A DNA stretch of 64,000 nt. Source: Candidatus Omnitrophota bacterium (GTDB taxonomy: Bacteria > Omnitrophota > Gorgyraeia > Tantalellales > Tantalellaceae). The notes under the pieces are model-generated. The model searched no databases, was not told the origin of the DNA, and saw only the letters and a list, made by a program, of their open reading frames with translations. The position numbers and the translations under genes were made by a program. Shown in pieces: positions 28,182 through 48,401 of this stretch. Location of the stretch: the NCBI GenBank assembly GCA_028715965.1, contig JAQUQS010000007.1, positions 17,644-81,643 on the forward strand, given 5' to 3'. The first letter of the stretch is position 1; every line of letters starts with the position of its first letter.

Positions 28182-28782
28182 CCTCCTTCATTAATATAGT
28201 TAACCCTTCTTTGATATCTGCCAGCTCTTCCTTCTCATCATCGCTCATGTAACTGCTAAGCTCTTCCATTTGCTTTTGTATAGATGCTATCTCCTCTTTG
28301 AGGCCATTAGTAGCATCCCCATGGTGATATATATCCCCCACCACTTTCTGTGGTGCCATGGGCATGTACCCAAGGGTTTGAAGCTTGGCGATGGTATCAA
28401 GTTCAAGGCGAGACGCATAATATATAGCTTGGGCTCTTTCACTTACAGAGGCTCCCTGTTGACGAGACAGTTTTATAAGATATTGAACATGTGACCTGGT
28501 ATTTTTAAGGAGTTCTCCAACCAACTGACATGCCAACTCCATATTGGGCACAATGGCGTTTTTTTGCCTGATCTCGTCCAAATCTCGCTTGATAGTTTTT
28601 TCACTTCTTCCAAGCAGTTTTGCCATTTGACTGTTTGAATATCCCTCGAGCTGCAGCGCCTCAACACACTCTTGCCGTTCTTCCTTAGACAAGGTAGCGG
28701 GGTTTATTTTGCCATCATGGATGTTTTGTATAATCCTCATAACAGGCTGTTCCTGTTTTTTCTGCGGTTTTTCTTTAGGCAT
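28159..28782 (-). CDS. Terminase small subunit-like HTH DNA-binding protein
   Basis: HTH at SNSQMAKLLGRSEKTIKRDL. It sits immediately upstream of the terminase large subunit. The start was set at MPKEKPQ with a G-rich Shine-Dalgarno. Confidence 0.55.
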   Translation of the reverse strand: MPKEKPQKKQEQPVMRIIQNIHDGKINPATLSKEERQECVEALQLEGYSNSQMAKLLGRSEKTIKRDLDEIRQKNAIVPNMELACQLVGELLKNTRSHVQYLIKLSRQQGASVSERAQAIYYASRLELDTIAKLQTLGYMPMAPQKVVGDIYHHGDATNGLKEEIASIQKQMEELSSYMSDDEKEELADIKEGLTILMKEDEDEKDK

Positions 28783-30037: not shown

Positions 30038-30059
30038 GTTTCCCTCCTTTTGTTTCAGT

Positions 30060-30170
30060 TGAAATAAAAAAAGAGGAAACCTGAAAGCTTCCGCTTTTGG
30101 TCTCCTCCCGAAACAAAAAGAGAGAAAACTGAAAACTTCTCGCTTTCAAATTTCCTCTCCAACAATTTGC
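30060..30170. repeat. Tandem ~22-bp direct repeats in intergenic region
   Basis: ggaaacctgaaagcttccgctttt and gaaaactgaaaacttctcgctttc, each preceded by ctcccgaaacaaaaagag-like sequence. Confidence 0.6.
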
Positions 30171-30251
30171 CCCTCCGGTTTTCTCCCCAGAGGATTGCAG
30201 AGTAAACTAACAATATATAGTATACCTAATTAACCGTATTTAATCAATCTG

Positions 30252-30902
30252 CTATTTTACAGTTACCTGTCCTTTATTATAAGATCCTATATATCCTTCC
30301 TCCAGCGCTCCCGGATGTTGGCTTGAGTATGCTGCAGAATTGTCCGCCTTATATGCTTCCTTAGTAGCATAGAAGCTTGCCTGTAAGAATCCATGTTTTT
30401 TACTTATTTTCCTTATAATATCTTCTGCCTTAGCCTTATCGTCCTTAATATATCCTGGGATCAATACTTCCCCCATCTTATCCTGAAGCAATCTGCCATT
30501 GACCATTAATGGGTATACGCCTAAAACCTCATGGGCAGGTAGCCCGCTATCTCCACTTACCTTAGCTTTCTTTGCTTGTGGGCTACCCTGATTCATGCGG
30601 CTAAAGATCTTAGTTCTGGACCCATCTTTTTCATGCCGATAAACTGCCTCAATATCGTGCCCCTTTAGTAGGAATAGGTATGTGGCCTTGCTTGTAGCTA
30701 TCTCCTGCCTCTTTCCCATAGCCCAGTCAGGCATAGCAGTTGCACTGAAAGGTGTGCCCAGATCTTGGTGGTTCTGAAGGAACCGTATAATAACCGGATT
30801 AATGGGTTCTTCCTCTGCCAGAAGTGTATTCGCGCAAAGAATGCCCCAAAATAACGCTATAATTAACAAAAATAATGGTCTTCTCTTCATTTTTCCTCCC
30901 AT
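30252..30902 (-). CDS. Secreted hypothetical protein (signal peptide)
   Basis: MKRRPLFLLIIALFWGILCANTLLA signal peptide. No recognisable domain. Confidence 0.5.
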   Translation of the reverse strand: MGGKMKRRPLFLLIIALFWGILCANTLLAEEEPINPVIIRFLQNHQDLGTPFSATAMPDWAMGKRQEIATSKATYLFLLKGHDIEAVYRHEKDGSRTKIFSRMNQGSPQAKKAKVSGDSGLPAHEVLGVYPLMVNGRLLQDKMGEVLIPGYIKDDKAKAEDIIRKISKKHGFLQASFYATKEAYKADNSAAYSSQHPGALEEGYIGSYNKGQVTVK

Positions 30903-30967
30903 TTAAGCATAATTTTGTAGACTATCATCTGTAGTGTTATCGTCTACATTATGCGATTATAGCTCTC

Positions 30968-31210
30968 ATGGGAAGGGATATCAAGTCATATAAGTTCAGG
31001 AAAGCATTTGGAATAGCCGTGCGTAAACACAGGCACAAAATGAACTTATCTCAAGAGGATTTTGCTGATAAGGCAAATATACATAGAACCTATGTTAGCT
31101 CTATAGAACTAGGTAAGGTCGACGTAGGCATCGGTGTGGCCTATAAGATGGCGGGGGCCTTGAATATAACTTTTAGCAAACTCGCCAAAGAAGCTGAGAA
31201 GAATTTGTAA
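30968..31210 (+). CDS. HTH XRE-family transcriptional regulator
   Basis: LSQEDFADKANIHRTYVSSIELGK helix-turn-helix. Confidence 0.7.
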   Translation: MGRDIKSYKFRKAFGIAVRKHRHKMNLSQEDFADKANIHRTYVSSIELGKVDVGIGVAYKMAGALNITFSKLAKEAEKNL

Positions 31211-31230
31211 CAAAATTCTTTTCCTTAATC

Positions 31231-32148
31231 TTATATTTCTTCATCTCCGAATGTGACATATGGATCTCCTATTACATCCAACTGGGTAAATCTTTCCTTG
31301 ACATTATCAACCTTATCTTCATAGCTAGCTTCTAACTCATCAAAATGTTCCATTTTAATCTGATCATTTTGAAAAGCAGTTATATATTCCTGATTCATAC
31401 CCGGATCAAATTTTAAAGGTTTTATACCCTTTATTAATCCTATGACCCCTTTATCCGTTTCGTTATTGATAAAATATATTAATAATTCCTTCCACAATAA
31501 CTTTTCTTTAGAAAAATCATATTCTTTTCTCATAAATATCTTAAACGCCTTTGAATTATATCTTACTTCATAAGTATAAAGATTTTTTGCTCTAGATTCG
31601 CTATAAATTATCTGATATAAGGCTTCCACTATCCTGCCAATAATCTTACCAATAAATTTTTTATATCTTTTGTCATTCGTTCGAATTTCCTCTTCAATAT
31701 TTAAATATTTACGAAGAAAATCAAGCAATGCAGTTTTCTCTTTGGAAATATTCTGTATCTTATTCAAACAATATCTATCGTATCTGATTGTTTTATAAAA
31801 ATTAGTTGTCATTTGCAGAAACGCATTATGAATATTTTCTAATTTCAAAGATTTTATTTTTTCCAACCTTTGCAACAGCTCTAAATGGCTATGTGTTATT
31901 AATCCTTTTTCGAATAATTCTTGTTCAAGATCATCATTGTATTCAAGTAAAATTATTGCTATTTTTTGCAGTCTTTCTACTCCACAAGAAATATTATATA
32001 AAAAATCAAAAATTGCTCCTTCAGCTTCGAAATCCTTAATTTCATCAAAAGCTTTTAAGCCGTTATATATAAAATTGCCCGCAATATCTAGCTCAATGCC
32101 TAAACTAAAATTTTGCCAAAATTCTTCTTTTGTCATTGATTTATTCAT
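31231..32148 (-). CDS. Hypothetical protein (305 aa), last gene of the hsd-linked array
   Basis: Lies 15 bp downstream of the Cas4-like nuclease gene. No confident domain; possibly Abi-like. Confidence 0.45.
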   Translation of the reverse strand: MNKSMTKEEFWQNFSLGIELDIAGNFIYNGLKAFDEIKDFEAEGAIFDFLYNISCGVERLQKIAIILLEYNDDLEQELFEKGLITHSHLELLQRLEKIKSLKLENIHNAFLQMTTNFYKTIRYDRYCLNKIQNISKEKTALLDFLRKYLNIEEEIRTNDKRYKKFIGKIIGRIVEALYQIIYSESRAKNLYTYEVRYNSKAFKIFMRKEYDFSKEKLLWKELLIYFINNETDKGVIGLIKGIKPLKFDPGMNQEYITAFQNDQIKMEHFDELEASYEDKVDNVKERFTQLDVIGDPYVTFGDEEI

Positions 32149-32163
32149 AATAATCCTTTTTCA

Positions 32164-33660
32164 CTATTTACTCATTCGTTCCAGTTCTTGTTTTATAACC
32201 ATCGACGCCTTGCAGTCATCCTCATTATATTCAAGTATCCTATTCAGGATACTTTCATCTTTCGTTTCACAATATTCGTTATACCACTTGATTGATAACG
32301 CCCCGGATGGGGTTTCGTCCCGCCACTTGAAACCAAGATATGTAGCGATTTCTTTTAATGAATAACTCGGTAATGGCCAGTCTGTTTTACTGTAAATGGC
32401 CTCATAATATAAATCTATAATATGAGGCTGATTGAAATATGTTTCCACTTCTTCCGGAGTTACTATGTCCGGATAAAGACCAGCTAAAGCTTTATATGTA
32501 GTTTTCTCGTGACTAGAATAGTAATAAACAGCATGAGATTTATCTTCAAAGGACTTCAGATAATCCCATAGTTCTTTAAAGGCTTGTTTCTCTCCTACTT
32601 CATCTGTACTTTTTGCAACAAATGCAACAAACCTTTCTTTGTCTCCAATCTTCTCGTAAATACCATGCAGATAAACTATACCCCTCATTGGATCATCTTC
32701 TATATCAAGATATAGCTCAGCATCAACTTCAGGAAAAGATATCGGCTCATAGAAAACAGGTTTCTGTTCATTATTTAAGACCTGTGCTCTTTTGTGAATC
32801 TGGGTTAATGTCTTATCACCAAGCTGCATGCCTTTGAGCTTATCTTTTTCTAGTTTCTTGGTGGTAAGAATGGTTTCTAGATCTATCTCTGACATTTGCT
32901 TAGTCGTCATAATTCCAAATACATCATTTAATGCATCGCGTTTACTTCGCCCCAAATAAAATAACTTTGTAAGGTCATCTTTTCCATAGCACCACTTTTT
33001 ACAACTCGTATACCATATACACATCTTGCATACAGATCCTAACGCTGGTATATTTTGAACCTCGTCAGCAATTAACTTTCTTGTCTCTGCCTTTATTTCT
33101 TCATAATATTGCCAATAAGTCCTCAAGTCCTTTTTCCCCATAGGCAGGTCTAAATCATACTCTACCTCTTCTCCATGACCATCTATTATGATTCCTTTAT
33201 TTTTAGAAGCATATCCAAGCTTTTGCAGAATATCAACATATAGACATAATTGAACTGCATAATGTTTCTTTAGTTTTTCTTCTCCATTTTCTGAAAAATC
33301 GCCATAGCCCCTACCTGATTTGATATCAATTGGTATATATTTGTCCCCGTCCTTTTTTAGTAGATCAGGTATACCCATCATATCCTCATATTCGATTACA
33401 CCCTGATATATGAGCTCGGCGCCTTCATCCATTGCTTTTTTTGTTTTTTCAATCCTTTCCTCAAAGGTTCCGCCTGAAATATCTGTATATTTACCAATAG
33501 ATTCAATTATTTCTTTCTCATGCAGAACCCCTCTATCCCAGATAAGCTGCAAGAAGGCATTTTCCTCATCTTGCTTCTCATTCTGAGGTCCATAAATATC
33601 CCGCCACACCCTGTGCGGACATTGGATATAGTTATACAATTTAGAGGCTGTTATGGTCAT
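32164..33660 (-). CDS. RecB/Cas4-family PD-(D/E)xK nuclease with 4-Cys cluster and C-terminal RNase H-like domain (TM0106-like)
   Basis: N-terminal YNYIQCPHRVWRD, IPDLL...IDIKSG, QLCLY and CKMCIWYTSCKKWC match the Cas4-like nuclease pattern. C-terminal YLDIEDD...YYYSSHE...NEDDC matches a DEDD-like exonuclease pattern. The start forms an ATGA overlap with the upstream OLD-family gene. Confidence 0.65.
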   Translation of the reverse strand: MTITASKLYNYIQCPHRVWRDIYGPQNEKQDEENAFLQLIWDRGVLHEKEIIESIGKYTDISGGTFEERIEKTKKAMDEGAELIYQGVIEYEDMMGIPDLLKKDGDKYIPIDIKSGRGYGDFSENGEEKLKKHYAVQLCLYVDILQKLGYASKNKGIIIDGHGEEVEYDLDLPMGKKDLRTYWQYYEEIKAETRKLIADEVQNIPALGSVCKMCIWYTSCKKWCYGKDDLTKLFYLGRSKRDALNDVFGIMTTKQMSEIDLETILTTKKLEKDKLKGMQLGDKTLTQIHKRAQVLNNEQKPVFYEPISFPEVDAELYLDIEDDPMRGIVYLHGIYEKIGDKERFVAFVAKSTDEVGEKQAFKELWDYLKSFEDKSHAVYYYSSHEKTTYKALAGLYPDIVTPEEVETYFNQPHIIDLYYEAIYSKTDWPLPSYSLKEIATYLGFKWRDETPSGALSIKWYNEYCETKDESILNRILEYNEDDCKASMVIKQELERMSK

Positions 33661-35513
33661 TTTTCTTTAACAATATGCTCAATAATTGCTTCTATCTCAC
33701 CATCTGAGACTTCTTTCCATTCATCGGGAGACATCTCATTATAAACATCCTTATTCCCTTTTATCTTTATATTCTTTTTAGTCTCTTTGTTGATTTTCTT
33801 TAGATGATTTATTACGTCTTTGTTGTTTGGAAATATATCCTGTTCAATGTCTTGATCAGACAAACCATAAGCTCTTCTGATAGCTTTAGGATGATAGTAA
33901 TTTTCAATACACTGTTTTTTAAGAATGCAGCATTTAGCGTTTTTATTCTTTTCAAATTCAGTTTTCAAAGCTTCGTTATTTTTGATCAACTTCACTAGTG
34001 ACTTTTGTTTGTCTTCCGAACACTCAGATTCATCAAAAACATTACCATCTAACAACAAAACTAATGCCCTTCTTGACTTTGAAAAGTAATGAATATCTAT
34101 AAAATTGGCTAAAGTATTCCCTCCACCAAAGAGAAACAAATATTTGTTTCTCTTTTCGTCATCGTCAAAATCAATACCTTTCAACTTTTGAGCAGCTATT
34201 TTTAAAAAATCGATATCATCTTTTCCTTCCACGAAAATGATTTTTTCAAAGCTATCTCTAAGATTATAGGATGGTTTGATCCCCAGTTCTTCAATTATCT
34301 CCTCTACTAAATCAACACCCTGTTCATAAATAGACTGAATGTTATGTCTGCATAAAATAATATTTGTTTTTTTAGTGGTTCCAGCGAAAACTGGAGAATG
34401 CGTTGTAACCAGAATTTGATTATTGCTTGAAATCTCTGATAAAGAATCTAATAAATCAACCTGTGCTGAGGGATGCAAAAATGTTTCTGGCTCTTCTATT
34501 GCATAAATAACATCTTCACTTTTCTTTTTCTCTGCCAAATACCGAAAACGTCCAACCATAAACAATCTTCGATACCCTGCCCCTTTATTTTCCATCGGCA
34601 AAGCCTCTTTGTCTTTGCTAAATTTCAACTTAACAGTTACATCCTTGATAGCATCAACCCAGTTAAATTGTGGTTCGATTTCAACTTTTTCCAAATCTGA
34701 CACATGCATCTTCATATACTTTTCTATCTCTCTAGCCTCTGTTTGCATCCTCTCAGCAACATCTTTTTCAATTCTTAGCAATTTTGATTCTTCATGATGC
34801 TGCTCTTCACGAAAATATTCTATAGTTTCTGCTTTCATGCTTGTATTAAATTTTGTGTCTGTGCTTATCGCATGATCTGATGGAAAAAACTCCATCTGAG
34901 GCAATACTCCATCAATTTTTGGATCTTCTTTCCATATAACACATTTATTATGACCATTGCTATCTAGGTATTCTTTTATATACTTAATCTTTTCAAGCTT
35001 TGAATTCCTACCCGGCACATCTGCTGGCACACTTATCTTCAGCTGTTTTATTATTCTATCTATGTCTTTATCTGCCTTATCGCTTAATTGTTGATATGCT
35101 TCCTCTTCATAATCTACAACACAAACTTCACTCCGCGTTGGTTTTTTGTCTGGTTTTTCCCAGGTTTTTCTTACAACTAGGTGTTCTCCTTCCTGCAAAA
35201 TAGAAAACACTTCTTCTTCTATCCCAATATCCTTCTTCCGTGTATCCTTCAAATACTCTGCCATCTTTGCCCTCATATCTTCATCTGAAAATGTGCAGAC
35301 CATCTGGATGGGCTCTTCTGCTTTCCTATTTATATTAAAGTCCTTTTCACAAACAGGATAACTTTTATTATCTAAAAATGAGGCTATTGCATTCAATACT
35401 ATAGATTTTCCACTATCATTTTTCCCAACAATCGTTGTAAGATCTGAAAGCATAACCTCCTGGTCTTTAAATATTCCTCGGAAATTTTTTATTTTAATCT
35501 TTGTCAATCTCAT
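33657..35513 (-). CDS. OLD-family ATP-dependent nuclease (ABC-type ATPase + C-terminal TOPRIM)
   Basis: Walker A IVGKNDSGKS, Walker B/D-loop IYAIEEPETFLHPS, and H-loop TTHSP. C-terminal IIFVEGKDDIDFL...LLLDGNVFDE matches the TOPRIM E and DxD pattern. 618 aa, similar in size to P2 Old. Confidence 0.7.
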   Translation of the reverse strand: MRLTKIKIKNFRGIFKDQEVMLSDLTTIVGKNDSGKSIVLNAIASFLDNKSYPVCEKDFNINRKAEEPIQMVCTFSDEDMRAKMAEYLKDTRKKDIGIEEEVFSILQEGEHLVVRKTWEKPDKKPTRSEVCVVDYEEEAYQQLSDKADKDIDRIIKQLKISVPADVPGRNSKLEKIKYIKEYLDSNGHNKCVIWKEDPKIDGVLPQMEFFPSDHAISTDTKFNTSMKAETIEYFREEQHHEESKLLRIEKDVAERMQTEAREIEKYMKMHVSDLEKVEIEPQFNWVDAIKDVTVKLKFSKDKEALPMENKGAGYRRLFMVGRFRYLAEKKKSEDVIYAIEEPETFLHPSAQVDLLDSLSEISSNNQILVTTHSPVFAGTTKKTNIILCRHNIQSIYEQGVDLVEEIIEELGIKPSYNLRDSFEKIIFVEGKDDIDFLKIAAQKLKGIDFDDDEKRNKYLFLFGGGNTLANFIDIHYFSKSRRALVLLLDGNVFDESECSEDKQKSLVKLIKNNEALKTEFEKNKNAKCCILKKQCIENYYHPKAIRRAYGLSDQDIEQDIFPNNKDVINHLKKINKETKKNIKIKGNKDVYNEMSPDEWKEVSDGEIEAIIEHIVKEK

Positions 35514-36790
35514 ACGTTCTCCTCGTCATCTTGATTGTCATCATTTACATACGCTTCCGGCAACTCTAATATCTCTATCTTAGGCAGACTCATACCTGCT
35601 AAGCCTTCAATATCTCCCTGCATGCCACCGATATTGAGAACAACTCGTTCTATCTGTTTTTCCCGTTTATCCCAAATCTTATTCATGGCACGCTTCTCTC
35701 TATCAAGATCCTCTTTCATGCCAACAAAAGATTCTACAATTGCCTCTACCCTGTTTCTGAATTCCGGGCCTGTAAGGTAGTTATAAACTAGTTCTTTCTT
35801 CTCAGCCTTGCCTTCTTGTAGGCTTTTTTCTACCGCCACTTTTGTCAAAATAACACGCAAGGCTAGAGCAAGACTATTTGCCGCGCCTAAGGAAGCTACC
35901 CACACTCCTTCTATTTGTCTAAAATGAGTAAGCCCTGGGGGGAGAACTTCGGAAACTATAACCGCCACATCAGCTTTAGCATCCCTTTGGTCATCTTTTA
36001 GCTTTTGAAGCCACTTATCGCTCCATGTTTTTGTCCTCTTAGTCTCCCAGAGTATTTTTCCACAAACTCTGCCAGACTGTGTTTTTACCGTTTGTATAAC
36101 ATCGCCGCCTTTAACGCCTTTTGATACAGGGTCTATTTCATCAAAGACAAACTCTTCTTTCAGCATATCCTCAAGTTCAAGTTCTAGGACCTCCCCCTGG
36201 TTCTGTTGAGACCCCTGTTCTGCTTTTCTCTTCAGATCGTCTATCTGCTTACGCATATCAGCAAGTTGTTTATCTTTCTCCGCATCTTTCAGGCGGTGCT
36301 CTTCTTCATAGGTCTTAAGTGTTACTTCCTTAATTTTAGAACGTTCCTCGTCAAGCTTCCTTGCCATTTCAAGTTCAGCAGCCTTTTCTCTTTCTTCGAG
36401 TTCTCGTTGTTTCTTTCGAAGTTCTAACTCCTGTTTTTGACCTTCCGCTAGCTTGTCATCTTTTTCCTGAAGCTGCGCTTTAAGATCTTCTAATTCAAGT
36501 TTTATGGACTCTTCTGCCTTCTTCTTTGCCTTATCCTCAGCCTCTTTCTTCGCTGCTTCTATCTGATCGGAAAGCTCTTTTTCCTTCTTGTTAAATTTTT
36601 CCCTTTCATCCTGAAGCTTTTTGTTAAGCTCTTGTTCCTTTACTTCAGTCTCTTTGCTGGCCTTTTCTTCAAGGTCTTTTATTTGCTTCTGATACTTCTT
36701 TGCAACCTCAACCTCTATATCATGTGATACGGCCTGTGAAAGCTCAAACTCAGCTCCACACTCCGGGCATTTAATTAATCCTTTAGACAT
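35510..36790 (-). CDS. Zinc-ribbon + long coiled-coil protein with C-terminal PD-(D/E)xK-like domain (DUF2130-like)
   Basis: N-terminal CPECG...(ribbon). About 200 aa of Lys/Glu-rich heptads. C-terminal GGDVIQTV...ILWETKRTK gives a D..ExK arrangement. The DUF2130 name is from memory. It overlaps the OLD-family gene by 4 bp. Confidence 0.5.
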   Translation of the reverse strand: MSKGLIKCPECGAEFELSQAVSHDIEVEVAKKYQKQIKDLEEKASKETEVKEQELNKKLQDEREKFNKKEKELSDQIEAAKKEAEDKAKKKAEESIKLELEDLKAQLQEKDDKLAEGQKQELELRKKQRELEEREKAAELEMARKLDEERSKIKEVTLKTYEEEHRLKDAEKDKQLADMRKQIDDLKRKAEQGSQQNQGEVLELELEDMLKEEFVFDEIDPVSKGVKGGDVIQTVKTQSGRVCGKILWETKRTKTWSDKWLQKLKDDQRDAKADVAVIVSEVLPPGLTHFRQIEGVWVASLGAANSLALALRVILTKVAVEKSLQEGKAEKKELVYNYLTGPEFRNRVEAIVESFVGMKEDLDREKRAMNKIWDKREKQIERVVLNIGGMQGDIEGLAGMSLPKIEILELPEAYVNDDNQDDEENV

Positions 36791-36808
36791 AATATCCTCC
36801 CAAATATA

Positions 36809-37573
36809 TTATTTTTCCTTATCTTTTTCTGCCTTTTTAGAAAGCAGCAATAACAATGCAACTATCAAATGAACCACCCATGACAACAATAATATAATTC
36901 CAATACCTATCAATATTAAAATCAATGGGAAGAGGATAGCCGCTATTAAATATGTCGTGAAAAATACGATCTTCTTACAATGCCATATAATCTTATTCTC
37001 TTTTTTAGGAAATTCTAAAATGGCGATTTTTTCAAAAAGTAATGTATTAAAATAATCTATGGGCATTACTTTATACGGTTCTCTTTCGAAACAATAAACT
37101 CCAGCCTCCTCAAATCCTGTCGCTATTAATTCTGAGCAAAAGTAGGCTTCTTCAACGTTAAACCGTCCACCCATAAACTTATTATCTAGAAGAAAATGAA
37201 ACTGATGCGGCAAGAGATTAAACAGCAAAAAATATACTAACCCTCTGAAATCGTACTTTTCTCCTTTTTCATTAACACAAAAATCTATCATCTTCCCGAG
37301 GCTCTCTTGCGTAATGTTTTTTCTTCTCAAGACTAAAAGTTCAAAATTGCCACCCAAATAAGCCTCGGTGAAGTTTCGTCTTACAATACCCCCAGGAAAA
37401 GCTTCTACTACCTCGTCTTTCCCGAGATACAAAGCAGCGTGTGTCCATCCCCTTGAGGCATATCCTCTTTTGAAGAAATTTGCAACTTTGATCAATAACG
37501 ACGATAGAACAACCCCTTTACCACAAGTTAAAATGACATCTCCTGGCTGAATTTTATCTTTAAGATCTGACAT
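36809..37573 (-). CDS. Permuted papain-like (YiiX/DUF830-type) peptidase with C-terminal TM anchor
   Basis: HAALYLG ... CSELIA motifs. C-terminal hydrophobic stretch IIWHCKKIVFFTTYLIAAILFPLILILIGIGIILLLSWVVHLIVALLLLL. Confidence 0.45.
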   Translation of the reverse strand: MSDLKDKIQPGDVILTCGKGVVLSSLLIKVANFFKRGYASRGWTHAALYLGKDEVVEAFPGGIVRRNFTEAYLGGNFELLVLRRKNITQESLGKMIDFCVNEKGEKYDFRGLVYFLLFNLLPHQFHFLLDNKFMGGRFNVEEAYFCSELIATGFEEAGVYCFEREPYKVMPIDYFNTLLFEKIAILEFPKKENKIIWHCKKIVFFTTYLIAAILFPLILILIGIGIILLLSWVVHLIVALLLLLSKKAEKDKEK

Positions 37574-37582
37574 AATATCTCC

Positions 37583-38149
37583 TCACAAAACCTGTTTCTG
37601 TATCAAAAACCAATACATCATCAGATCTTGTTCTTTTAATTTTGGGTTTTTAAATTTCTTTTCAATAATATTCCAGAAATGTTTATTGTGTTTTCGCTCC
37701 TCTAAGTGAGCGATCTCATGAAAAAGAACATATTTCACAAGGTTATCCGGCAAATACCGCATTAGGGCATTGACTGTTATAATCCTATTCTGCGAACAAC
37801 TTGCCCATTTTGTTTTCATGGTTTTGAAATCTAGTCTTTTAATCTCTATCTTCAAGGGCTTCAGATATTCATCAAGTGTTTTCCTTACAAAACCTTTAAA
37901 GCTGTCGATGTCTCTTTTGACTTTTAACTGTTCTCCCTCGCTTCTATCCAGAGAGGCTTCTATCTGATCATGTTTGGACATGATCCATTTCTCATGTTTC
38001 AATAAGAGTTCGGCTTCAGTCTCCTTCCAATCCTTGGGTACAATTAATTTTAAGATACCTGTCTTGAACTCAAGCCGTGGATGTTTAACTTTCCTGTACT
38101 CGGTCTGGTAAAACACAACCTTGTTATATGCTTTTATCGGTTTATCCAT
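37583..38149 (-). CDS. DUF45/YgjP-like (M48/WLM-type) metal-dependent hydrolase commonly linked to hsdR
   Basis: YVLFHEIAHLEERKHNKHFW is an HExxH motif at the characteristic position. It overlaps the hsdR stop by 8 bp. Confidence 0.7.
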   Translation of the reverse strand: MDKPIKAYNKVVFYQTEYRKVKHPRLEFKTGILKLIVPKDWKETEAELLLKHEKWIMSKHDQIEASLDRSEGEQLKVKRDIDSFKGFVRKTLDEYLKPLKIEIKRLDFKTMKTKWASCSQNRIITVNALMRYLPDNLVKYVLFHEIAHLEERKHNKHFWNIIEKKFKNPKLKEQDLMMYWFLIQKQVL

Positions 38150-41100
38150 GCTTCACCACGTGATCAATAAGTTTCTGATAAAGCTGTTCCATCGCATCAA
38201 TGCTCAGTCCATATTCTCGAACGTATTTCCTTATAAACTTCCGGATGGTTTTTTCTACATTTTTCCGTACAGTTACTTGCGTAGCCCAGTTTGGAAACTT
38301 CCTTGCTTTAAGCCCAATAATGTCATCAAGGTTATCGTACAACTCTTTGACATCGTCAATTAGGGCCTTTTGCTTGCCAAATTGTTTTTCCAAGATAAGG
38401 AGCAAATTATAAGAAATGTCATCAAATCCGATATCTCTTTGCCTCTTCTTGATGGACATCATATCGTCCCATATGGCCAAGCCCTCATTATATATTTCTT
38501 CGAAATTCTTGGCCTTTTGTTTCCATGTATCCAGAAGTTTCTCTACTCTTTCGGCTACGGTCTCGTAAATAGTATTTTTCTGCCGGTCAACAAGAACATA
38601 TCTATTGAGCGTGAAGACAAGATTTGCGGCTTTTTCTTCTTTGCCTTTTGCCTTTGCATCTAGCACTTCGATGTACTTTTCATTAAACTCAATAGCAGGC
38701 AAGGCATCATCAAGCTCTTTCAACTCTGTCGTCTTGTGGATAAATTCAACTGTTTGTTTGTAGTATTGTTCGATATAGAGCTTCTCATCCTCTCCACGCG
38801 CTAAAACAATCTTGAGATAGCTAGCATATATCTGACTCAGCCATCCATACTCAAGGGCTTTCTCTGCTTTTATGGTTTCAGATCCCAGCAGCTCAAACAG
38901 CTTCCTTAATGTTTTAAATTCACTCAGGAAATGTTTACAAAGGACTTCATCGGCCGTTAGAACCTCTATCGCCTTAAGCAAAGTTTTTCTGTCTACCTTA
39001 TCTTTTGGTAAGGCCTCAAAGATGCCCAGAAGCTGACTCAGTTTTTCAAAAAATTCCTTTTTTAGCTCATCAGCGCTATAAAGAACCCCTTTCACTTCTT
39101 CCTGCGTATATATCTCAAAAGCCCTATTGAAGTCTTTCAGTATTCCTATATAGTCGACAATAAGACCCGCTTCTTTTACTCCCTTATAAGGTCTATTTGT
39201 TCTTGCTATGGCCTGTAGCAATCTATGTTCTTTAAGTGGTTGATCCAAGTACATTGTCTGTAAAATAGGAGCATTAAAGCCTGTTAGGAGCATGTCTTTC
39301 ACGATAAAGATCTTCGGCAAGTCCTCTTCTTTGTACTTATTTATGAGCTCTTTCTTAATATCATCTATTTCCTTACCATTATGCCTTTTAACTAATTCCG
39401 ATTTATACTTCTTAATAGCATCGGAATCTTTTTTTTCTGAATAGCTCATTACTGCTTCCGAATACTCGGGAGGCAAATGCTTATCAAGCTCTCTTTTATA
39501 CATAACACATGCCTCCCGGCTAACTGCCACAACAAGAGCTTTATATTTACCATTCACATTTTTCTTGAAATGTTTAGCGATATTCTCTGCCACTATCTTT
39601 ATTCTTTCGGGGTTTTCAAGATAGGCTTTTACTATGCTGAGTTTCTCTTTTATGCCCTCTTCCACGCTTTCCCTGATGTCATCAGGAATCTCTTGGTATT
39701 TTTCCTTAAGAAAATTGTCTAACATCTCAGCGTTAAGATGTATTCCTTCCTTATCTGCAAGTGCAGGTTTATATGCTATCCTTACAGTAAACTCATCCTG
39801 CCAGGATTCCGTAATAAAATATTTGTCGATATATTTTTCCTCCGGGAGATAACTAAAATCCCTGTAGGTATCTATGCCTCTTTCGGGCTTACATATCGGA
39901 GTTCCTGTAAACGCAAAGAAGAAAGTCGTATCCTCACCGAGCAAGCTCTTCATCTGCGCAGCCATGCCACCGGACTGCGATCTATGCCCTTCATCTATGA
40001 AAGCTACAACATTCCCCCGTGTTTTAAGCGTTTCTTGTTTCTCTGACAACTCAGCAAGATACTTGTCAAGTTCTGCCAATTCTTCCGGCCTGAATTTATG
40101 GACAAGCGTTATAAACAAACCTCTTCTGCCTTTATAGCCATCATGCGAAACTATTTTTTTGAGCTCATCAATGGAACTGATTACTTCCGGCTTTGTGATA
40201 TCAAGGGCATTGAATTCGTCACTAAGCTGCTCTTCGAGCTCTTTTCTATCAACAATAAAGAATATCGTTGGGTTTTCTAAGACTGGGTTGTGGTACAGCT
40301 TATATGCAGCAAATATCATCTCCAGCGTCTTACCCGACCCTTGCCAATGCCATATAAGCCCCCTTCGCTTTTCGTCTTTGCTTGAAATGAAGGCCTTAAC
40401 CCTTTCCTCTATTTTGTTAACTGCTCTAAACTGCATATACCTGGTAATGACTTTGGTCGCATTTCCGAACTCGATACGATAGAAAATAAAATTTCGGATA
40501 ATATCAAGTAAGTTCTGGCAAGAAAGCATGCCTACGGTCGCGTCTATCGAATCTAAACCTTCCTCTTTCCATTCACCAACCTTTAATTGCCTAATATCAT
40601 CCTGCCATGGCACTATTGGAAAATATCGCGCTACTTCAGCGGCAGCCACCCCTATCTGAGCATATTTATATAATTCAGGCACAGCATTCTCATAATCTTT
40701 TACATCTTTAAAGGCATTAGTCCAGTCCTCGGAAAATGAAGTTGGATTCTTGCATTCAATATTAACAAGCGGAATACCATTAACATAAAGCACTATGTCC
40801 ATGATCTTGTGTTCTTCCCCATTTATATAGTGGATCTGCCTGGTCACGATAAACTCATTGTTCTTGATGTTGTCGTAATCAAAGAGCTGAATTCGCTCGA
40901 GGGTTCTCTCCCTTTCAAGTTTTATCGAAACTCCATTCTTAAGGTAGTTCAATATTTCTTTGATACCATCCTGAGTGGCTCCTTTAAACTTAAGGGCCTT
41001 AACTACGCTGTTAAGGTCCTCATTGGTTAAACTAGCCTTATTAATTTCCTTAATTTTACGCATGAGGTTTCTTAATAAAAGTGGTTCTTCAAAACTATCC

Positions 41101-41213
41101 CTCTCCAGATCATCAGCAGAAATAAATGTCCACCCTGCATCAGGGCCAATTAATTGTTCTATAATATACTTCTCTAAAGTTTCTTTTTCGTTAAACCTGG
41201 CCATATTAATCAC
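38142..41213 (-). CDS. hsdR: Type I restriction enzyme R subunit
   Basis: 1023 aa with a Walker A GSGKT-like motif, a DEAH box (IDEGHRSQ), helicase motifs and an N-terminal nuclease domain. Confidence 0.85.
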   Translation of the reverse strand: MINMARFNEKETLEKYIIEQLIGPDAGWTFISADDLERDSFEEPLLLRNLMRKIKEINKASLTNEDLNSVVKALKFKGATQDGIKEILNYLKNGVSIKLERERTLERIQLFDYDNIKNNEFIVTRQIHYINGEEHKIMDIVLYVNGIPLVNIECKNPTSFSEDWTNAFKDVKDYENAVPELYKYAQIGVAAAEVARYFPIVPWQDDIRQLKVGEWKEEGLDSIDATVGMLSCQNLLDIIRNFIFYRIEFGNATKVITRYMQFRAVNKIEERVKAFISSKDEKRRGLIWHWQGSGKTLEMIFAAYKLYHNPVLENPTIFFIVDRKELEEQLSDEFNALDITKPEVISSIDELKKIVSHDGYKGRRGLFITLVHKFRPEELAELDKYLAELSEKQETLKTRGNVVAFIDEGHRSQSGGMAAQMKSLLGEDTTFFFAFTGTPICKPERGIDTYRDFSYLPEEKYIDKYFITESWQDEFTVRIAYKPALADKEGIHLNAEMLDNFLKEKYQEIPDDIRESVEEGIKEKLSIVKAYLENPERIKIVAENIAKHFKKNVNGKYKALVVAVSREACVMYKRELDKHLPPEYSEAVMSYSEKKDSDAIKKYKSELVKRHNGKEIDDIKKELINKYKEEDLPKIFIVKDMLLTGFNAPILQTMYLDQPLKEHRLLQAIARTNRPYKGVKEAGLIVDYIGILKDFNRAFEIYTQEEVKGVLYSADELKKEFFEKLSQLLGIFEALPKDKVDRKTLLKAIEVLTADEVLCKHFLSEFKTLRKLFELLGSETIKAEKALEYGWLSQIYASYLKIVLARGEDEKLYIEQYYKQTVEFIHKTTELKELDDALPAIEFNEKYIEVLDAKAKGKEEKAANLVFTLNRYVLVDRQKNTIYETVAERVEKLLDTWKQKAKNFEEIYNEGLAIWDDMMSIKKRQRDIGFDDISYNLLLILEKQFGKQKALIDDVKELYDNLDDIIGLKARKFPNWATQVTVRKNVEKTIRKFIRKYVREYGLSIDAMEQLYQKLIDHVVKHG

Positions 41214-42420
41214 CTTTTATTCTTTTCTTTCCCGTTAAAAGATCGTTCATAAGTCCTTGCTTTATTCTCTTCAGTTTGTCTCTTCTATCTTTTTCTAAAT
41301 TCATTTTCTGTTCTACAAGCCTTATTTGATCTGCAACTTTATTTTGATAATCAATATCAACTTGTGGAACATTGAACTTTTCTAACATAGTTTTTGATAG
41401 CTCTTTAAAGGTGCTTTGTCCCGCTCTATTTTCGAGCGCATATCTTTTAGAACTCAGATAATAGGAATAAAATAAAGGATTAACCTCTTCCTCTTTTCTT
41501 GGCAATAACCCTTTGCATCCTTGATTAAAAGTACTTTCAATTTGAAGCAGTGCGACATAACCAACCGGAGCCCTTGTGGACATTACTATTGAATTTGCTG
41601 GCATAATATTTAGATTGGCATCCTTCACGGCTTTATCAGATACCTTTCTCTTGCTTTCTCCCACATAGACATCTCCCTCAAGCTGGCCAAGATCGGCAGG
41701 AGTCAACCAGTTTACTTTTCCATCTTTCCAGTACTTTTTATTTTTTGTTGATGGCGTACTTCCGCTTTTAACTTCAAAGATATTGATGAGTGGGACAAAT
41801 TTAAGCTTCTCATTTTTCAAAAAATATTTATTCACTAACCCTTGTTTTATATGTTCCAACTCCTGAACAATCATATCTGTTTTTTCAATTACCAAATCAA
41901 GAATTGTTAAAATTTTTGATATTTCCTCTTGTTCTTTCAGTGGAGGCATTATGATATGTAGCTTATTCATATCTCTTTGGAAAATATGCGGGATCTGCCC
42001 CCCTGACACTTTTTGGCGTAATAGTCTTTTAAAGAAAGGACCTTGAAAAAAATAGAATAAGTACTTTGGCAAAAGATCTTCTTTTTCACTCCTTATTAGC
42101 ATCATTGTGCTATTTATTGTCGCCTGTTCCGGCAAGTTATCAATAAAGGCAAGCTGCCCAATGGTCCCGTCCTTAGACATAATAATGTCTTCTTTTTTTA
42201 ATTGTATTTCAGGAGATTCATCATAACGCTGCTTTGATATATGATCACATTCTCGCCAAAGCACTTTCCCGTTATTTAGATGTTTATTTGCAACAAGACT
42301 AGGCCCTTTTTTGGTATATTCCGAAGCCTTTAGGCCTCGCCATCCTATCCTTCCTTTAATATAGGCATAGTTTTCAAGAATATCTATTTTCCATTCTCCG
42401 GGTAATCTAAGGCTCTTCAT
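41206..42420 (-). CDS. hsdS: Type I restriction-modification specificity subunit
   Basis: 404 aa with two target-recognition-domain halves separated by conserved coiled regions. It lies between hsdM and hsdR. Confidence 0.8.
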   Translation of the reverse strand: MKSLRLPGEWKIDILENYAYIKGRIGWRGLKASEYTKKGPSLVANKHLNNGKVLWRECDHISKQRYDESPEIQLKKEDIIMSKDGTIGQLAFIDNLPEQATINSTMMLIRSEKEDLLPKYLFYFFQGPFFKRLLRQKVSGGQIPHIFQRDMNKLHIIMPPLKEQEEISKILTILDLVIEKTDMIVQELEHIKQGLVNKYFLKNEKLKFVPLINIFEVKSGSTPSTKNKKYWKDGKVNWLTPADLGQLEGDVYVGESKRKVSDKAVKDANLNIMPANSIVMSTRAPVGYVALLQIESTFNQGCKGLLPRKEEEVNPLFYSYYLSSKRYALENRAGQSTFKELSKTMLEKFNVPQVDIDYQNKVADQIRLVEQKMNLEKDRRDKLKRIKQGLMNDLLTGKKRIKGD

Positions 42421-42429
42421 TGGCTTCCT

Positions 42430-44184
42430 TTATTTGATGTTATTAATAACTGTCTCTATATCTTCTTCAAGAGCATCTATTTCGGATTTTAATTTTTTAT
42501 ATTTCCCCCACTCTTCCTTAATATCTATTTCTTCGATTTCATCCTCTGGAAAAACATACAAAGAAACATTTAGGTTATACTCATTTTCTTTTATTTCAAC
42601 GAGTTCAACACTTCTAGCAAACCCATCCTTTTCTTTGAAATCTTTATAAGCTTCAGCGATATTCCCAATATGTTCTTTTCCCAAAATTTTAAGCTTTCGT
42701 ACATCCGGATGCTGTCCGTACTCATTTGTTGCATTAATAAAAAGTACTTTTCCCTTGCGTTCCTTGGATTTCTTTTTATTAAGTATCATTATCGCCCCTG
42801 GTGCCCCTGTGTTGTAGAAAAGCTTTTCTGGAAGAAGCATTACACACTCTATTAGATCTTCATCAACAATCTTTGTTCGTATTATCTTTTCAGCTCCTCC
42901 ACGGAACAAACACCCGTTATCTATTACAACTCCCACCTTTCCTTTTGATGATGCAAGCATATGTTGTATCCATATCCAGTCAGCCGATTGCTTCGTTGCA
43001 AACCCATATGTGAAGCGCTTCTTCCAAAAATCACCTTTCTTTATAACGTTCTCATCATATCCATCCTGATTCCAGGGTGGATTCGCAATGACCATATCAA
43101 ATTGATTAACCATGTCTTCTTCTTTAAACTTCGGGTAAAGAAGAGTATCTCCATATGCTAACTGAGCGTTACGTATCTCATGCATGTACAGGTTCATTTT
43201 CCCAAAAGCTAAAGTTTTGTGATTTGCCTCTTGTCCAAAAAGAAAAAGTTTTTCCGCGTCCTCTCTTCCGTATTTCTCTTCTACATATTGATGCGCAATT
43301 ATGAGCATTCCACTCGATGCGACCGCAGGATCATAAACACTTTCATTGGGCTTAGGGTCTAATATCTCCACCAATAACCGGATAACTTCTCTAGGGGTGT
43401 ACACTTCCCCCTCTTTTGCTTTTTGCGGAGCAAAATACCCTAAAACCCATTCATATGCATCGCCCAGAATATCTGGCGCTACGTGATGAAGTTTTCTTTC
43501 GCTGAAAAGCTCTACCAGCTGTCTCAAAATTTCAGCGTTCTCACGGTTGTTGGTAAACTGTATGAAATCTGTTGTATCCAAAATATCTTTTAGCTCGGGG
43601 TTCTTCTCTGCTAAGATTTTGAGCCCTTTTGAAAAATTCTCGGGCAAACTATTTACGTCCTTCCTTATATTCTCCCAAAGATACTTTTCCGGTATTACGA
43701 AGTCGTGATATGTTTCGTTGGTTGCTTCTTTCTTGGCCTCGGCTTCGCTGAACCCATCATCTATTGCTTCCTTATACGCCTTTTCATATTCCAGTTCCCA
43801 TTTATCACTTATTCTTTTGAGGAACAACAGTATTAAAATAAACTTATAATCCACCCTGGTTCTTATAAGATCAGCTGCTTTCTTTAATATCCCCTCGAGA
43901 TCTCCTCTTGATATCTTCTGAAAGGCTTCCCCCATAACCTGGTCGAAAGATTTAAGGTTATATATTCTTTTTCTGGAATCGTCCGGATCTAGCTTTACCT
44001 CCAACCAGCCAGCCTTTTTTAATTCTGAAATAAGAACAGGTATCCCTTGCATGCTCTGTTTCTCTACATCTTTATCTTTGAGAATTTTCTCGACATCCTC
44101 CATGCCAAATTCACGATCTCCTAGCTCTTTCCATAAAAGTTCATATCTTGTCTTCACCCAGTTTGGCAAATTTGTCTGCACCAT
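42430..44184 (-). CDS. hsdM: Type I restriction-modification DNA methyltransferase subunit
   Basis: NPPW (motif IV), SAM-binding DPAVASSGML, and an N-terminal HsdM_N domain. Confidence 0.85.
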   Translation of the reverse strand: MVQTNLPNWVKTRYELLWKELGDREFGMEDVEKILKDKDVEKQSMQGIPVLISELKKAGWLEVKLDPDDSRKRIYNLKSFDQVMGEAFQKISRGDLEGILKKAADLIRTRVDYKFILILLFLKRISDKWELEYEKAYKEAIDDGFSEAEAKKEATNETYHDFVIPEKYLWENIRKDVNSLPENFSKGLKILAEKNPELKDILDTTDFIQFTNNRENAEILRQLVELFSERKLHHVAPDILGDAYEWVLGYFAPQKAKEGEVYTPREVIRLLVEILDPKPNESVYDPAVASSGMLIIAHQYVEEKYGREDAEKLFLFGQEANHKTLAFGKMNLYMHEIRNAQLAYGDTLLYPKFKEEDMVNQFDMVIANPPWNQDGYDENVIKKGDFWKKRFTYGFATKQSADWIWIQHMLASSKGKVGVVIDNGCLFRGGAEKIIRTKIVDEDLIECVMLLPEKLFYNTGAPGAIMILNKKKSKERKGKVLFINATNEYGQHPDVRKLKILGKEHIGNIAEAYKDFKEKDGFARSVELVEIKENEYNLNVSLYVFPEDEIEEIDIKEEWGKYKKLKSEIDALEEDIETVINNIK

Positions 44185-44438
44185 AAGTCTCTCCTATATT
44201 AGTTGTTTTTCTGTTGGCTTATTGTATAAGCTCTTTTCTTTTTTGCTTATGTAAATTATATCTTTTTTCAGGTTTTTGTCAATAAGTTTTTTTAACATTT
44301 TTTCGCTTCCGCATGTAAGCCTTTTATATATAACAATTTAAGACACAAATATTTATCGCTTTTTTCCTTGATATATCTCGTTTTCTATGGCTATATGTGT
44401 ACTAGCTTGAGATATAACATATTTAAAAACAAGGAGTT

Positions 44439-44759
44439 ATGATGGAAAATGAGAAAAAGCAGGGCCCTACAGGGTTATCTGACGAGGCCAAAGCCAGGCT
44501 GGACGAGTTTATTAAGGCCTATGACCCCATTAACAATAAGGCTTTACGGCAAAATGGGACTGGAGCATTACGGATCCGAGACAGGCGGCTGCCAATCCCC
44601 GGAACGGTCATATCTAAGGTATATAAAGGTACTACTATTGATGTTAAGGTGCTGGATAAGGGATTTGAGTATGACGGTAAGGCTTACCGTTCATTAAGTG
44701 CCATTGCCGGAGCGGTAACTGATCAACATTGGAATGGTTACCTATTTTTCGGTCTATAA
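44439..44759 (+). CDS. Small protein upstream of serine recombinase (DUF2924-like)
   Basis: 106 aa ending ...AVTDQHWNGYLFFGL. Position and size are typical of recombinase-associated small proteins. The family name is from memory. Confidence 0.45.
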   Translation: MMENEKKQGPTGLSDEAKARLDEFIKAYDPINNKALRQNGTGALRIRDRRLPIPGTVISKVYKGTTIDVKVLDKGFEYDGKAYRSLSAIAGAVTDQHWNGYLFFGL

Positions 44760-44773
44760 ACGAGGAGAGTTCA

Positions 44774-48325: not shown

Positions 48326-48401
48326 GTGGTGAGCCGCCTTGGACTCGAACCAAGCACAACCACATTAAAAGTGTGGTGCTCTACCTGATGAGCTAGCGGC
48401 C
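48326..48401 (-). tRNA. tRNA-Lys (anticodon TTT), CCA encoded
   Basis: The reverse complement is GGGCCGCTAGCTCATCAGGTAGAGCACCACACTTTTAATGTGGTTGTGCTTGGTTCGAGTCCAAGGCGGCTCACCA. The anticodon loop is CTTTTAA. Confidence 0.9.

Follow-up and report, generated by a model that had tools for sequence, protein, structure and literature searches.

An operon-like row of type I restriction-modification genes and exchangeable, probably defensive cassettes on an island of an Omnitrophota bacterium

Introduction

Do the genes that directly follow a type I restriction-modification (RM) system on the same strand form one fused system with it, or are they separable modules that can be exchanged? This question is raised by positions 31,231 to 44,184 of a 64,000-nucleotide stretch of DNA from Candidatus Omnitrophota bacterium (GenBank assembly GCA_028715965.1, contig JAQUQS010000007.1, positions 17,644 to 81,643), hereafter referred to as the window, where hsdM, hsdS and hsdR are followed by a tightly spaced series of genes for predicted hydrolases, nucleases and an ATPase. 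The Omnitrophota are a candidate phylum, known here from metagenome-assembled genomes alone. In type I RM, HsdM2-HsdS methylates the target, and HsdR translocates with ATP and cuts unmodified incoming DNA. Defence genes are frequently found embedded in type I RM systems (bioRxiv 10.1101/2024.01.29.577857; PMC11411939), and thousands of genes embedded in RM, BREX and DISARM systems have been described, with cassettes of an ABC ATPase and a nuclease as the commonest embedded type (Payne et al. 2024, bioRxiv 10.1101/2024.01.29.577857). A first-pass annotation of the window had regarded the locus as a fusion of a type I RM system with nuclease and peptidase cargo and had referred to type I RM loci as hotspots for defence cargo, a view for which PrrC, TgvAB and the embedded genes of Payne et al. 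provide precedent. As presented below, we consider it fairly probable that the row constitutes a layered operon for defence that is carried by a mobile island and built of separable modules rather than as one fused system.

Results

Nine closely spaced genes on one strand

Calling of open reading frames (ORFs) in 31,231-44,184 yielded nine consecutive ORFs, which encode, in row order, HsdM, HsdS, HsdR, a DUF45/YgjP protein, a YiiX-like protein, a DUF2130 protein, an OLD-type ATPase, a RecB/Cas4-like nuclease of the TM0106 family and an orphan protein of 305 amino acids (aa). The ten-gene minus-strand array described at first is present as such, with all genes on the minus strand, but the count has to be corrected to nine, since none of the gaps could fit another gene; the earlier list of genes also names nine. 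The eight junctions measure, in row order, +9, -8, -8, +9, +18, -4, -4 and +15 bp, in agreement with the previously reported gaps of 18 bp or less and overlaps of 4 to 8 bp. The overlap of 8 bp between hsdS and hsdR turns into a gap of 1 bp if hsdR begins at an ATG three codons in, as called in L001 (L-numbers designate genome and metagenome loci fetched around DUF2130). The identical arrangement is found in two further metagenome assemblies, L001 and L002, and therefore does not represent an assembly chimera or artefact. The shared orientation, on the other hand, is not special at this place, since the GC skew is negative over the entire window, long ORFs are nearly all on the minus strand and the neighbouring block at 24,525-30,037 is as densely packed as the row. 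A megablast search with the 13-kb row gave zero matches in E. coli genomes, phages and plasmids. Comparison with Pfam, NCBIfam and PADLOC upheld the family assignments made before, i.e. HsdM, HsdS, HsdR, YgjP-like/DUF45, a weak Peptidase_C92/YaeF, DUF2130, OLD, Cas4-like and a 305-aa protein without hits.

Sister islands differ by whole genes

In order to see which parts of the row are fixed and which are variable, the window was compared to two sister islands of the same kind, L003/L004 and L276/L277. The set hsdMSR-DUF45-DUF2130 is common to all three islands, and the differences consist of whole genes. Relative to L003, blastn revealed a collinear backbone of 74-87% identity that is broken only by gene-sized differences. 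Both the YiiX-like gene (window 37,578-36,795 versus 3 bp in L003) and the gene of the 305-aa protein (window 32,168-31,205 versus 18 bp in L003) are exact insertions or deletions. The OLD gene is swapped in L003 for a gene coding for a 641-aa OLD protein of 22% identity plus a small WYL-like ORF, and the genes on either side are kept, with 82% identity for DUF2130 and 84% for the RecB-like nuclease. At the far edge of the row, window 31,204-30,884 is 87% identical to L003.

Relative to L276, similarity stops at the 3' end of DUF2130 (window 35,555), the same breakpoint as in L003. Past this point, L276 carries genes for a 734-aa protein (11,263-13,467 of that locus), a 148-aa ORF, a Cas4-like PDDEXK_1 protein and three ORFs, beyond which the genes for a helix-turn-helix (HTH) protein, a ParB-methylase and a terminase resume. 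The 734-aa protein is a full-length match (4e-268) to PDC-S46, an untested candidate in PADLOC, and has only a sub-threshold match to SMC_N; L276 is natural evidence of PDC-S46 in a defence slot. In sequence, the PDC-S46 and Cas4-like proteins from the slot of L276 resemble neither the OLD nor the RecB-like protein of the window. The YiiX-like and DUF2130 proteins of L276 are 92% and 97% identical to those of the window and are far closer than HsdM and HsdR (both 77%) and DUF45 (69%), which is a further indication of block exchange.

These comparisons define a hypervariable slot that reaches from the 3' end of DUF2130 to a convergent HTH_3 regulator gene on the plus strand (30,968-31,210; HTH_3 1.2e-12), the distal conserved edge of the slot, whose stop codon lies 20 bp from the end of the row. 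The slot holds an OLD-type ABC ATPase and a Cas4-like nuclease in the window and in L003, and PDC-S46 and a Cas4-like nuclease in L276. The window and its two sisters are thus a natural experiment, in which one slot has the same flanks and three different fillings, and we conclude that the cargo is exchangeable and probably defensive. These data directly confirm the earlier idea that the cargo behind the type I RM core is variable, as the islands differ by whole genes past hsdR-DUF45.

Occurrence of the modules outside the sister islands

The linkage between the downstream genes and hsd was assessed in a sample of 172 loci fetched around DUF2130, about 146 of them non-identical, in which HsdM- and HsdR-like genes were sought by tblastn within 5-10 kb. 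All neighbourhood counts rest on de novo ORF calls and on tblastn and HMM thresholds and are lower bounds; as the loci were sampled around DUF2130, they give the frequency of OLD beside DUF2130 and not the reverse. Outside the sister islands, HsdM- or HsdR-like genes were found near DUF2130 in only about 5 of the roughly 146 loci (L015, L049, L086, L095 and L263). The functional unit that the term fusion implies is not supported, since the DUF2130, YiiX-like and 305-aa families mostly occur elsewhere without hsd genes nearby. In L008, DUF2130 belongs to a defence island with OLD, nSTAND3/Mrr and a PLD restriction enzyme.

Among the immediate same-strand neighbours of DUF2130 (n=114, Pfam), OLD-type ABC ATPases are the commonest families (AAA_21/SMC_N 18, AAA_15 11, OLD-like_TOPRIM 8), and PDDEXK_1 was found five times. 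By the OLD profile, an OLD-like gene adjoins DUF2130 in 14 of the 146 loci; the fraction is 5/18 for DUF2130 proteins at least 70% identical to that of the window and 0/23 below 45% identity. The OLD proteins of these pairs fall into two lineages with a mutual identity of only 22-24%, and both gene orders occur. The locus L105 (8,132-12,285) carries an OLD protein of the window type (64% identical), followed by DUF2130 and by a 303-aa protein recognised by PADLOC as a retron type II-A NDT effector (5.6e-80), and thus represents one more defence cluster around this pair; the NDT effector was considered as a counterpart of the 305-aa protein of the window and rejected, as the two are unrelated. 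An OLD-profile scan of viral contigs, which served as a control, returned 75 OLD-like loci, and DUF2130 lay within 5 kb of none of them. OLD-like relatives outside the DUF2130-centred sample were in no case near a type I RM set, members of the RecB-like family were encountered in DUF2130-centred loci only, and single-protein scans of viral contigs with OLD and with the RecB-like protein found nothing. The association of DUF2130 with OLD is thus real but facultative; L276 keeps DUF2130 without OLD.

A predicted complete type I RM system with a DUF45 companion

The first gene of the row, hsdM (42,430-44,184, minus strand), codes for an N6-adenine DNA methyltransferase of 584 aa (N6_Mtase 357 bits, HsdM_N 59 bits; PADLOC MTase_I 6.6e-101), whose translation contains the motifs DPAVASSG (DPAxxSSG) and NPPW; its score of 182 bits against TIGR00497 is under the equivalog cut-off of 243. 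The protein has an N-terminal extension of about 95 residues ahead of the HsdM_N domain (residues 1-96, window 43,897-44,184), for which Pfam gave no significant match, only faint winged-helix hints. The second gene, hsdS (41,206-42,420, minus strand), encodes a specificity subunit of 404 aa with two target-recognition domains (Methylase_S in two stretches, 1.1e-42; PADLOC Specificity_I 8.7e-59, covering residues 6-398). By blastn, the first of these domains (42,523-41,935) could not be aligned with L003, which indicates that L003 has a different specificity. The restriction and translocase subunit HsdR (38,142-41,213, minus strand) comprises 1023 aa from a GTG, or 1020 aa if the start is the ATG at 41,204. 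It matches TIGR00348 with 641 bits at a cut-off of 285, contains the domains HSDR_N, SWI2_SNF2 and T1R_D3, and shows D...ECK nuclease and DEGH helicase motifs in its translation. The assignments of HsdM, HsdS and HsdR are solid, and the three proteins are predicted to make up a complete type I RM system.

The next gene (37,583-38,149, minus strand) codes for a 188-aa DUF45/YgjP-like zinc metallopeptidase with a HEIAH motif (PF01863, 84.5 bits at a cut-off of 26). It overlaps hsdR by 8 bp, and the identical overlap is present in L004 and L276. When we inspected six diverse plasmid homologues of DUF45, three immediately adjoined hsdR and one adjoined an N6 methylase gene; DUF45 is located directly downstream of hsdR on Synechocystis pSYSX and on an Acetobacter plasmid, and convergent to it on Geobacillus pLDW-2. 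The pairing of DUF45 and hsdR was also found in L049. Literature searches on DUF45, YgjP or COG1451 together with type I restriction returned nothing useful, and the link was examined on annotated plasmids. DUF45 is a recurrent companion of HsdR across phyla and part of the RM core rather than cargo. The statement that cargo is placed behind hsdR thus stands for the appended downstream genes, but not for DUF45. Judged from this linkage, DUF45 probably acts on or with HsdR.

The ATPase-nuclease cassette and DUF2130

The DUF2130 gene (35,510-36,790, minus strand) encodes a protein of 426 aa that had been called DUF2130-like; the family was right, and with 243 bits against PF09903 (cut-off 26.7) the protein is in fact a full member. 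It is composed of a CPxCG zinc-ribbon, a coiled coil that is variable and about 190 residues long, and a conserved core, in which D230 and E249-x-K251 are invariant across 55 aligned sequences. The family has been placed in the PD-(D/E)XK superfamily (PMC3424549). In the AlphaFold2 (AF2) model, one long helix is confident and the alpha/beta core reaches a pLDDT (the local confidence score of AF2) of 42-64; because of this low confidence, the PD-(D/E)XK fold is tentative, and the Foldseek matches to Hjc resolvases and SPARDA nucleases, which are not significant, are just suggestive. DUF2130 is a very large and highly conserved family with more than 7000 matches and more than 592 genome loci. 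No PADLOC model covers it, and the literature mentions that we found place it in no defence context.

The OLD-type ABC ATPase (33,657-35,513, minus strand; 618 aa) combines an ATPase half with a degenerate Toprim half. Residues 1-377 match AAA_15 over the whole profile (1-374 of 374, 4.5e-43), and the PADLOC models matched are AriA, Old and GajA, of which AriA (4.8e-42) spans the ATPase half end to end and is matched only at this generic half. The nearest solved structures are Ts OLD (6p74) and GajA. In the alignment, the ATPase motifs GKNDSGKS, IEEPE and THSP are intact. In the Toprim half, Glu429-Gly430 is kept, but GGK reads GGN in the window protein, with Lys replaced by Asn, and the DxD motif reads D489-G-N in the window protein and in the 64%-identical homologue of L105, as opposed to DxD in eight other OLD proteins. 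Since the metal motif is altered and the score against Pfam OLD-like_TOPRIM is below threshold (14.1 bits, cut-off 23.2), nuclease activity of this protein is doubtful. Three known OLD contexts were considered and rejected: Gabija (class 2), as no UvrD/PcrA/Rep-like GajB helicase is encoded beside the OLD gene; retron-associated OLD (class 3), as there is no reverse-transcriptase domain in the nine products and no Rfam hit in the region; and PARIS (class 4), as a single protein carries both the ATPase and the Toprim-like half and the searches gave no hit to DUF4435.

The gene that follows (32,164-33,660, minus strand) encodes a PD-(D/E)XK nuclease of 498 aa that contains a PDDEXK_1 domain, a C-terminal RNase H-like 3'-5' exonuclease domain (RNase_H_2), the cysteines C14, C211, C214 and C220 and an LDIEDD motif. 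The earlier label of a Cas4-like nuclease is correct for the PD-(D/E)XK half, but the protein belongs to the TM0106 family (TIGR03491, 246.5 bits at a cut-off of 97.45, profile positions 1-460 of 462) and has the RNase_H_2 domain in addition. To our knowledge, no function has been assigned to TM0106 nucleases. An identity as CRISPR-associated Cas4 was rejected (TIGR00372, 35 bits at a cut-off of 65; no CRISPR-like array in 21,000-48,500 and no cas genes), and so was MADS, on the basis of the NCBIfam cut-offs (MAD2 62.6 versus 720, MAD3 51.3 versus 420, MAD5 59 versus 400).

Two single-gene cassettes

The YiiX-like gene (36,809-37,573, minus strand) codes for a protein of 254 aa that resembles the permuted papain-fold (NlpC/P60) hydrolases of the YiiX/YaeF type. 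Its scores are below the cut-offs for both Peptidase_C92 (20.8 bits, cut-off 27) and NCBIfam YaeF (51 bits, cut-off 279; 9.6e-14). About 50 homologues of 240-285 aa were found, many of which, at 50-60% identity, carry PF05708 (C92), and His45, Glu57 and Cys146-Ser-Glu are invariant in an alignment of 18 homologues. The protein would therefore be a relative of Peptidase_C92 rather than a scored member. In a Kyte-Doolittle scan, its C-terminus is hydrophobic at residues 199-248 (KD19 maximum 3.17), consistent with a predicted C-terminal membrane anchor. The row had been thought to encode two membrane-anchored peptidase-like proteins; this applies to the YiiX-like protein alone, as the same scan detected no hydrophobic segment in DUF45 (maximum 0.68), which is soluble. 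Elsewhere, the YiiX-like family is encoded behind SMODS genes in one defence island and amid Mrr, NucS and HsdR-like genes in another.

The last gene of the row (31,231-32,148, minus strand) codes for the 305-aa orphan, which has about 130 homologues and zero matches in Pfam, NCBIfam, PADLOC and PHROG. Its AF2 model is all-alpha and confident (pLDDT 91.6), and Foldseek searches of PDB and BFVD gave no significant match. Weak matches to Pfam HEPN in 8 of 41 relatives (best 0.002), along with HEPN domains that Foldseek lists at low probability, give a hint that the protein may be HEPN-like. A relationship with the AbiV protein encoded on the same island was considered and rejected, as the two are unrelated. 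In other genomes, members of the family are encoded alone beside integrases and toxin-antitoxin genes, and also, as an accessory gene, between prophage head and tail genes. Profile searches of PDB sequences with the DUF2130, YiiX-like and 305-aa proteins gave nothing significant.

Transcription signals

The AT-rich region upstream of hsdM had been suggested to contain the promoter of the row, and this region does hold a sigma-70-type promoter, TTGACA-16-TATAAT, on the minus strand at 44,282-44,255. It is positioned 70 bp upstream of hsdM and is the sole 12/12 consensus match in 29,500-45,500; in L003, the -35 hexamer and the spacing are the same and the -10 hexamer is TAAAAT. The 5' leader of hsdM also contains a perfect palindrome, GCTTATnnnATAAGC (44,217-44,231), which occurs once in the window, compared to 0.01 expected, and is conserved in L003; this palindrome (GCTTATTGTATAAGC) is a candidate operator that might control the RM operon. 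A purine-rich Shine-Dalgarno-like stretch precedes eight of the nine starts. Promoter-like sites are rarer than in shuffled sequence (37 versus 47.2 +/- 5.7), terminator-like sites are no commoner (12 found, 10.2 expected), and the minus-strand terminator-like hairpins within the row are three in number, weak and all inside hsdS or hsdR. Between the stops of the 305-aa gene and the convergent HTH gene, there is an AT-rich inverted repeat (31,196-31,223; 11-nt arms, 91% complementary, 6-nt loop), a possible weak bidirectional terminator that is absent from the calls of the terminator scan. From this operon-like layout, we infer that a single transcript starting at the hsdM promoter is plausible.

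The host island and its surroundings

Divergent from hsdM, on the plus strand, genes for a DUF2924 protein and a large serine recombinase (44,439-46,075; Resolvase, Recombinase, Zn_ribbon_recom and DUF2924 domains) are conserved in L003 and L276 and constitute the mobility genes of the island. The end of the island abuts a tRNA-Lys(UUU) gene on the minus strand (48,327-48,402; ARAGORN and Rfam), and copies of 10-13 nt of the 3' end of this tRNA are found at 23,757, 23,998 and 24,242. Together with the low GC content (0.30-0.46 in the island versus about 0.50 in the flanks), these copies suggest an element of about 24 kb integrated beside tRNA-Lys. In addition to the row, the island encodes an AbiV-HEPN protein (46,433-47,953), a TIR protein, a ParB-N6/N4 methylase, an HTH protein (possibly the small terminase) and the large terminase TerL (26,520-28,181; phrog_38, 2e-100), for which L003 has no counterpart. 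The element, at about 24,250-48,325, thus comprises terminase, recombinase and ParB-methylase genes but no capsid or tail genes, and looks like a satellite or a prophage remnant.

Several further features were observed in and around the island. Between the recombinase and the end of the island, another variable slot contains AbiV-HEPN in the window (46,433-47,953; also 48,039-46,403), DUF5677 in L003 and a SEC-C-motif protein in L276. At 23,757-24,251, within the low-GC region, there are two tandem GC-rich units of 244 bp that are 98% identical. Each unit starts with 10-13 nt of the tRNA-Lys 3' end and is itself followed by a strong hairpin between A and T runs; on the minus strand, the units would end in ...GGCGGCUCACCA, similar to a tRNA acceptor end, and one unit folds at z = -3.9. 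No match was obtained in Rfam. The units could represent a duplication of attachment sites or an RNA not annotated so far. Outside these putative attachment repeats, 21,000-23,700 is more low-GC DNA with an HTH and SocA/Panacea antitoxin-like gene (22,555-23,340) and a 126-aa ORF, and may be the remnant of another insertion at the same site. The gene at 30,252-30,902, just past the convergent HTH gene, codes for a protein of 216 aa that matches no family and has a signal-like hydrophobic segment at its N-terminus; the gene has its own 11/12 promoter-like site at 30,984-30,956. Farther away, the window contains a gene for a 1933-aa beta-propeller (lactonase/YNCE-like) protein (16,084-21,885), which stops where the low-GC region starts, and a 6S RNA gene on the minus strand (56,170-56,325; 61.8 bits).

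Discussion

Our favoured explanation of the row, which we regard as fairly probable, is a layered defence operon, carried by a mobile island, with modules that are separable from each other. In such an arrangement, the RM system and its DUF45 companion would form the first module, with restriction as the first line of defence. Behind it, the YiiX-like Cys-His hydrolase, DUF2130, the OLD ATPase paired with the RecB/Cas4-like nuclease, and the 305-aa orphan would be swappable cassettes: recombination at gene boundaries would exchange whole genes in the slot and leave them under the hsdM promoter. The ATPase-nuclease cassette would act as an independent second line, possibly working with DUF2130. 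The OLD ATPase would sense infection, and its partner nucleases, perhaps also its own weakened Toprim, would degrade nucleic acid. The YiiX-like hydrolase and the 305-aa protein might be further independent lines of one gene each.

Some of our data weigh against this interpretation. The PADLOC matches of the cargo are limited to the OLD-type ATPase and the Cas4-like domain, and the proposed defence role is therefore guilt by association. DUF2130 is also found by itself among housekeeping genes (L010) and on the conjugative plasmid pMLa, near genes for relaxase, ParA, DUF736, ArdC-like proteins and a zincin-like peptidase, contexts of housekeeping or of plasmid transfer and maintenance that fit roles other than defence. 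The overlapping starts of hsdR/DUF45 and of DUF2130/OLD/RecB-like, and the retention of hsdMSR-DUF45-DUF2130 in all three islands, could mean a closer functional coupling than separable modules imply. Finally, weak promoter-like sites matching 9 of 12 consensus positions are located inside the row on the minus strand, e.g. at 36,913-36,886, just upstream of DUF2130, which could drive this gene separately, and at 33,236-33,208.

Three other explanations were considered. If the internal sites were functional, the row would consist of several abutting transcription units, and the tight spacing would have no regulatory meaning; in agreement with this, the DUF2130-OLD pair necessarily relies on a promoter of its own at loci that lack hsd genes. 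We nevertheless judge this to be unlikely, as promoter-like sites are fewer than in shuffled sequence, four junctions overlap by 4-8 bp, terminator-like hairpins on the minus strand are confined to the three weak ones within hsdS and hsdR, and the cassette insertions are exact within a few bases, with the Shine-Dalgarno-like stretch and the spacing kept. Alternatively, the cargo might be a guard wired to the RM system, in which abortive infection would be set off when DUF2130, OLD and the RecB-like protein detect either an inhibited HsdMSR or phage anti-restriction proteins. Guards of this type are known from PrrC inside EcoprrI and from PARIS, which responds to Ocr. The position of the cargo directly behind a type I RM system under one promoter, the constant company of DUF2130 and hsdMSR-DUF45 in the three islands and the end-to-end match of the OLD ATPase half to AriA are compatible with such a guard, and RM-guard systems are an established concept (PMC12707154). 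The same modules, however, occur without hsd genes, which makes a guard less likely: DUF2130 proteins of 72-91% identity adjoin OLD with no hsd genes nearby in L005, L014 and L093, and the window-type OLD is found beside DUF2130 without hsd in L105. Moreover, unrelated proteins occupy the position of the ATPase in the sister islands, and no AriB/DUF4435 or PrrC-like domain was found in the nine products, so that we consider this explanation distinctly improbable.

The downstream genes could also serve the mobile element itself, for instance in DNA processing, recombination or repair at excision, replication, packaging, or in countering the defences of a new host. The terminase, ParB-methylase and serine recombinase genes of the island, the lack of an assigned function for TM0106 nucleases and the above contexts of DUF2130 in L010 and on pMLa speak for such a service. 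On the other side, gene turnover in the slot between close sisters is typical of defence hotspots rather than of core element functions, the slot holds OLD-family proteins and a PADLOC defence candidate, and the same-strand neighbours of DUF2130 are mostly nucleases, STAND NTPases and ABC ATPases, and we hold it to be very unlikely.

With regard to separable defence modules, the lead with the greatest novelty in this analysis is the pairing of DUF2130 with OLD, which recurs. OLD proteins have been grouped into four context classes (PMC10568477), and the pairing fits none of them. As a speculative proposal to which we attach little confidence, DUF2130 and the OLD ATPase, here with the Cas4/RNase H-like nuclease, might represent an undescribed multi-nuclease immunity module and a fifth class of OLD context, in which, given the partial loss of the metal-binding motif from the OLD Toprim of this lineage, the ATPase would mainly be the infection sensor or motor, the PD-(D/E)XK partners would cut, and the module might back up restriction. 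Besides the DUF2130-OLD pairing, the YiiX-like membrane hydrolase and the 305-aa family are not catalogued so far, and the locus thus yields candidate immunity genes that are missing from defence catalogues. It also adds DUF45 as a protein that travels with HsdR across phyla. Since the cassettes behind the RM system are interchangeable, the locus is an ordinary defence island: a real, fresh instance of RM with defence genes and of a variable-slot hotspot, with a few worthwhile candidates, which leaves the understanding of defence islands in general unchanged.

In comparison with known systems, the OLD protein shares with the OLD classes 1-4 (P2 Old/Ts OLD, Gabija, retron Eco8 and PARIS) the N-terminal ABC ATPase with a dimerisation insert and the Toprim Glu-Gly. 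It differs from them in that no UvrD helicase, retron or separate AriB is present, its neighbours are two PD-(D/E)XK proteins and DxD reads DGN. The pairing of ATPase and nuclease within a larger defence system resembles HEC-02, which combines an ABC ATPase with a NERD PD-(D/E)XK nuclease (Payne et al. 2024), but the nucleases here are DUF2130 and TM0106 instead of NERD, and the HEC-02 model is not matched, while HEC-01A is matched weakly via the ATPase. As in PrrC/EcoprrI, in TgvAB of the V. cholerae island VPI-2 and in the candidates of Payne et al., hsdMSR clusters in an operon-like manner with unrelated nuclease and ATPase defence genes. In contrast to those embedded loci, the cargo is appended after hsdR-DUF45 and not inserted between hsd genes, and PADLOC has no model for DUF2130, the YiiX-like protein or the 305-aa orphan. 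Hotspots of the P2/P4 type in phages and satellites have conserved flanks and a variable filling, with OLD and PARIS-type genes as typical content (PMC9122126, Rousset et al. 2022). The present locus is distinguished from these hotspots by its location beside tRNA-Lys on an island of the Omnitrophota that has a large serine recombinase and is no relative of P2 or P4, and by a flank that is itself a row of defence genes, but it corresponds to them in having conserved flanks on a mobile element and a slot whose content is wholly different between close relatives.

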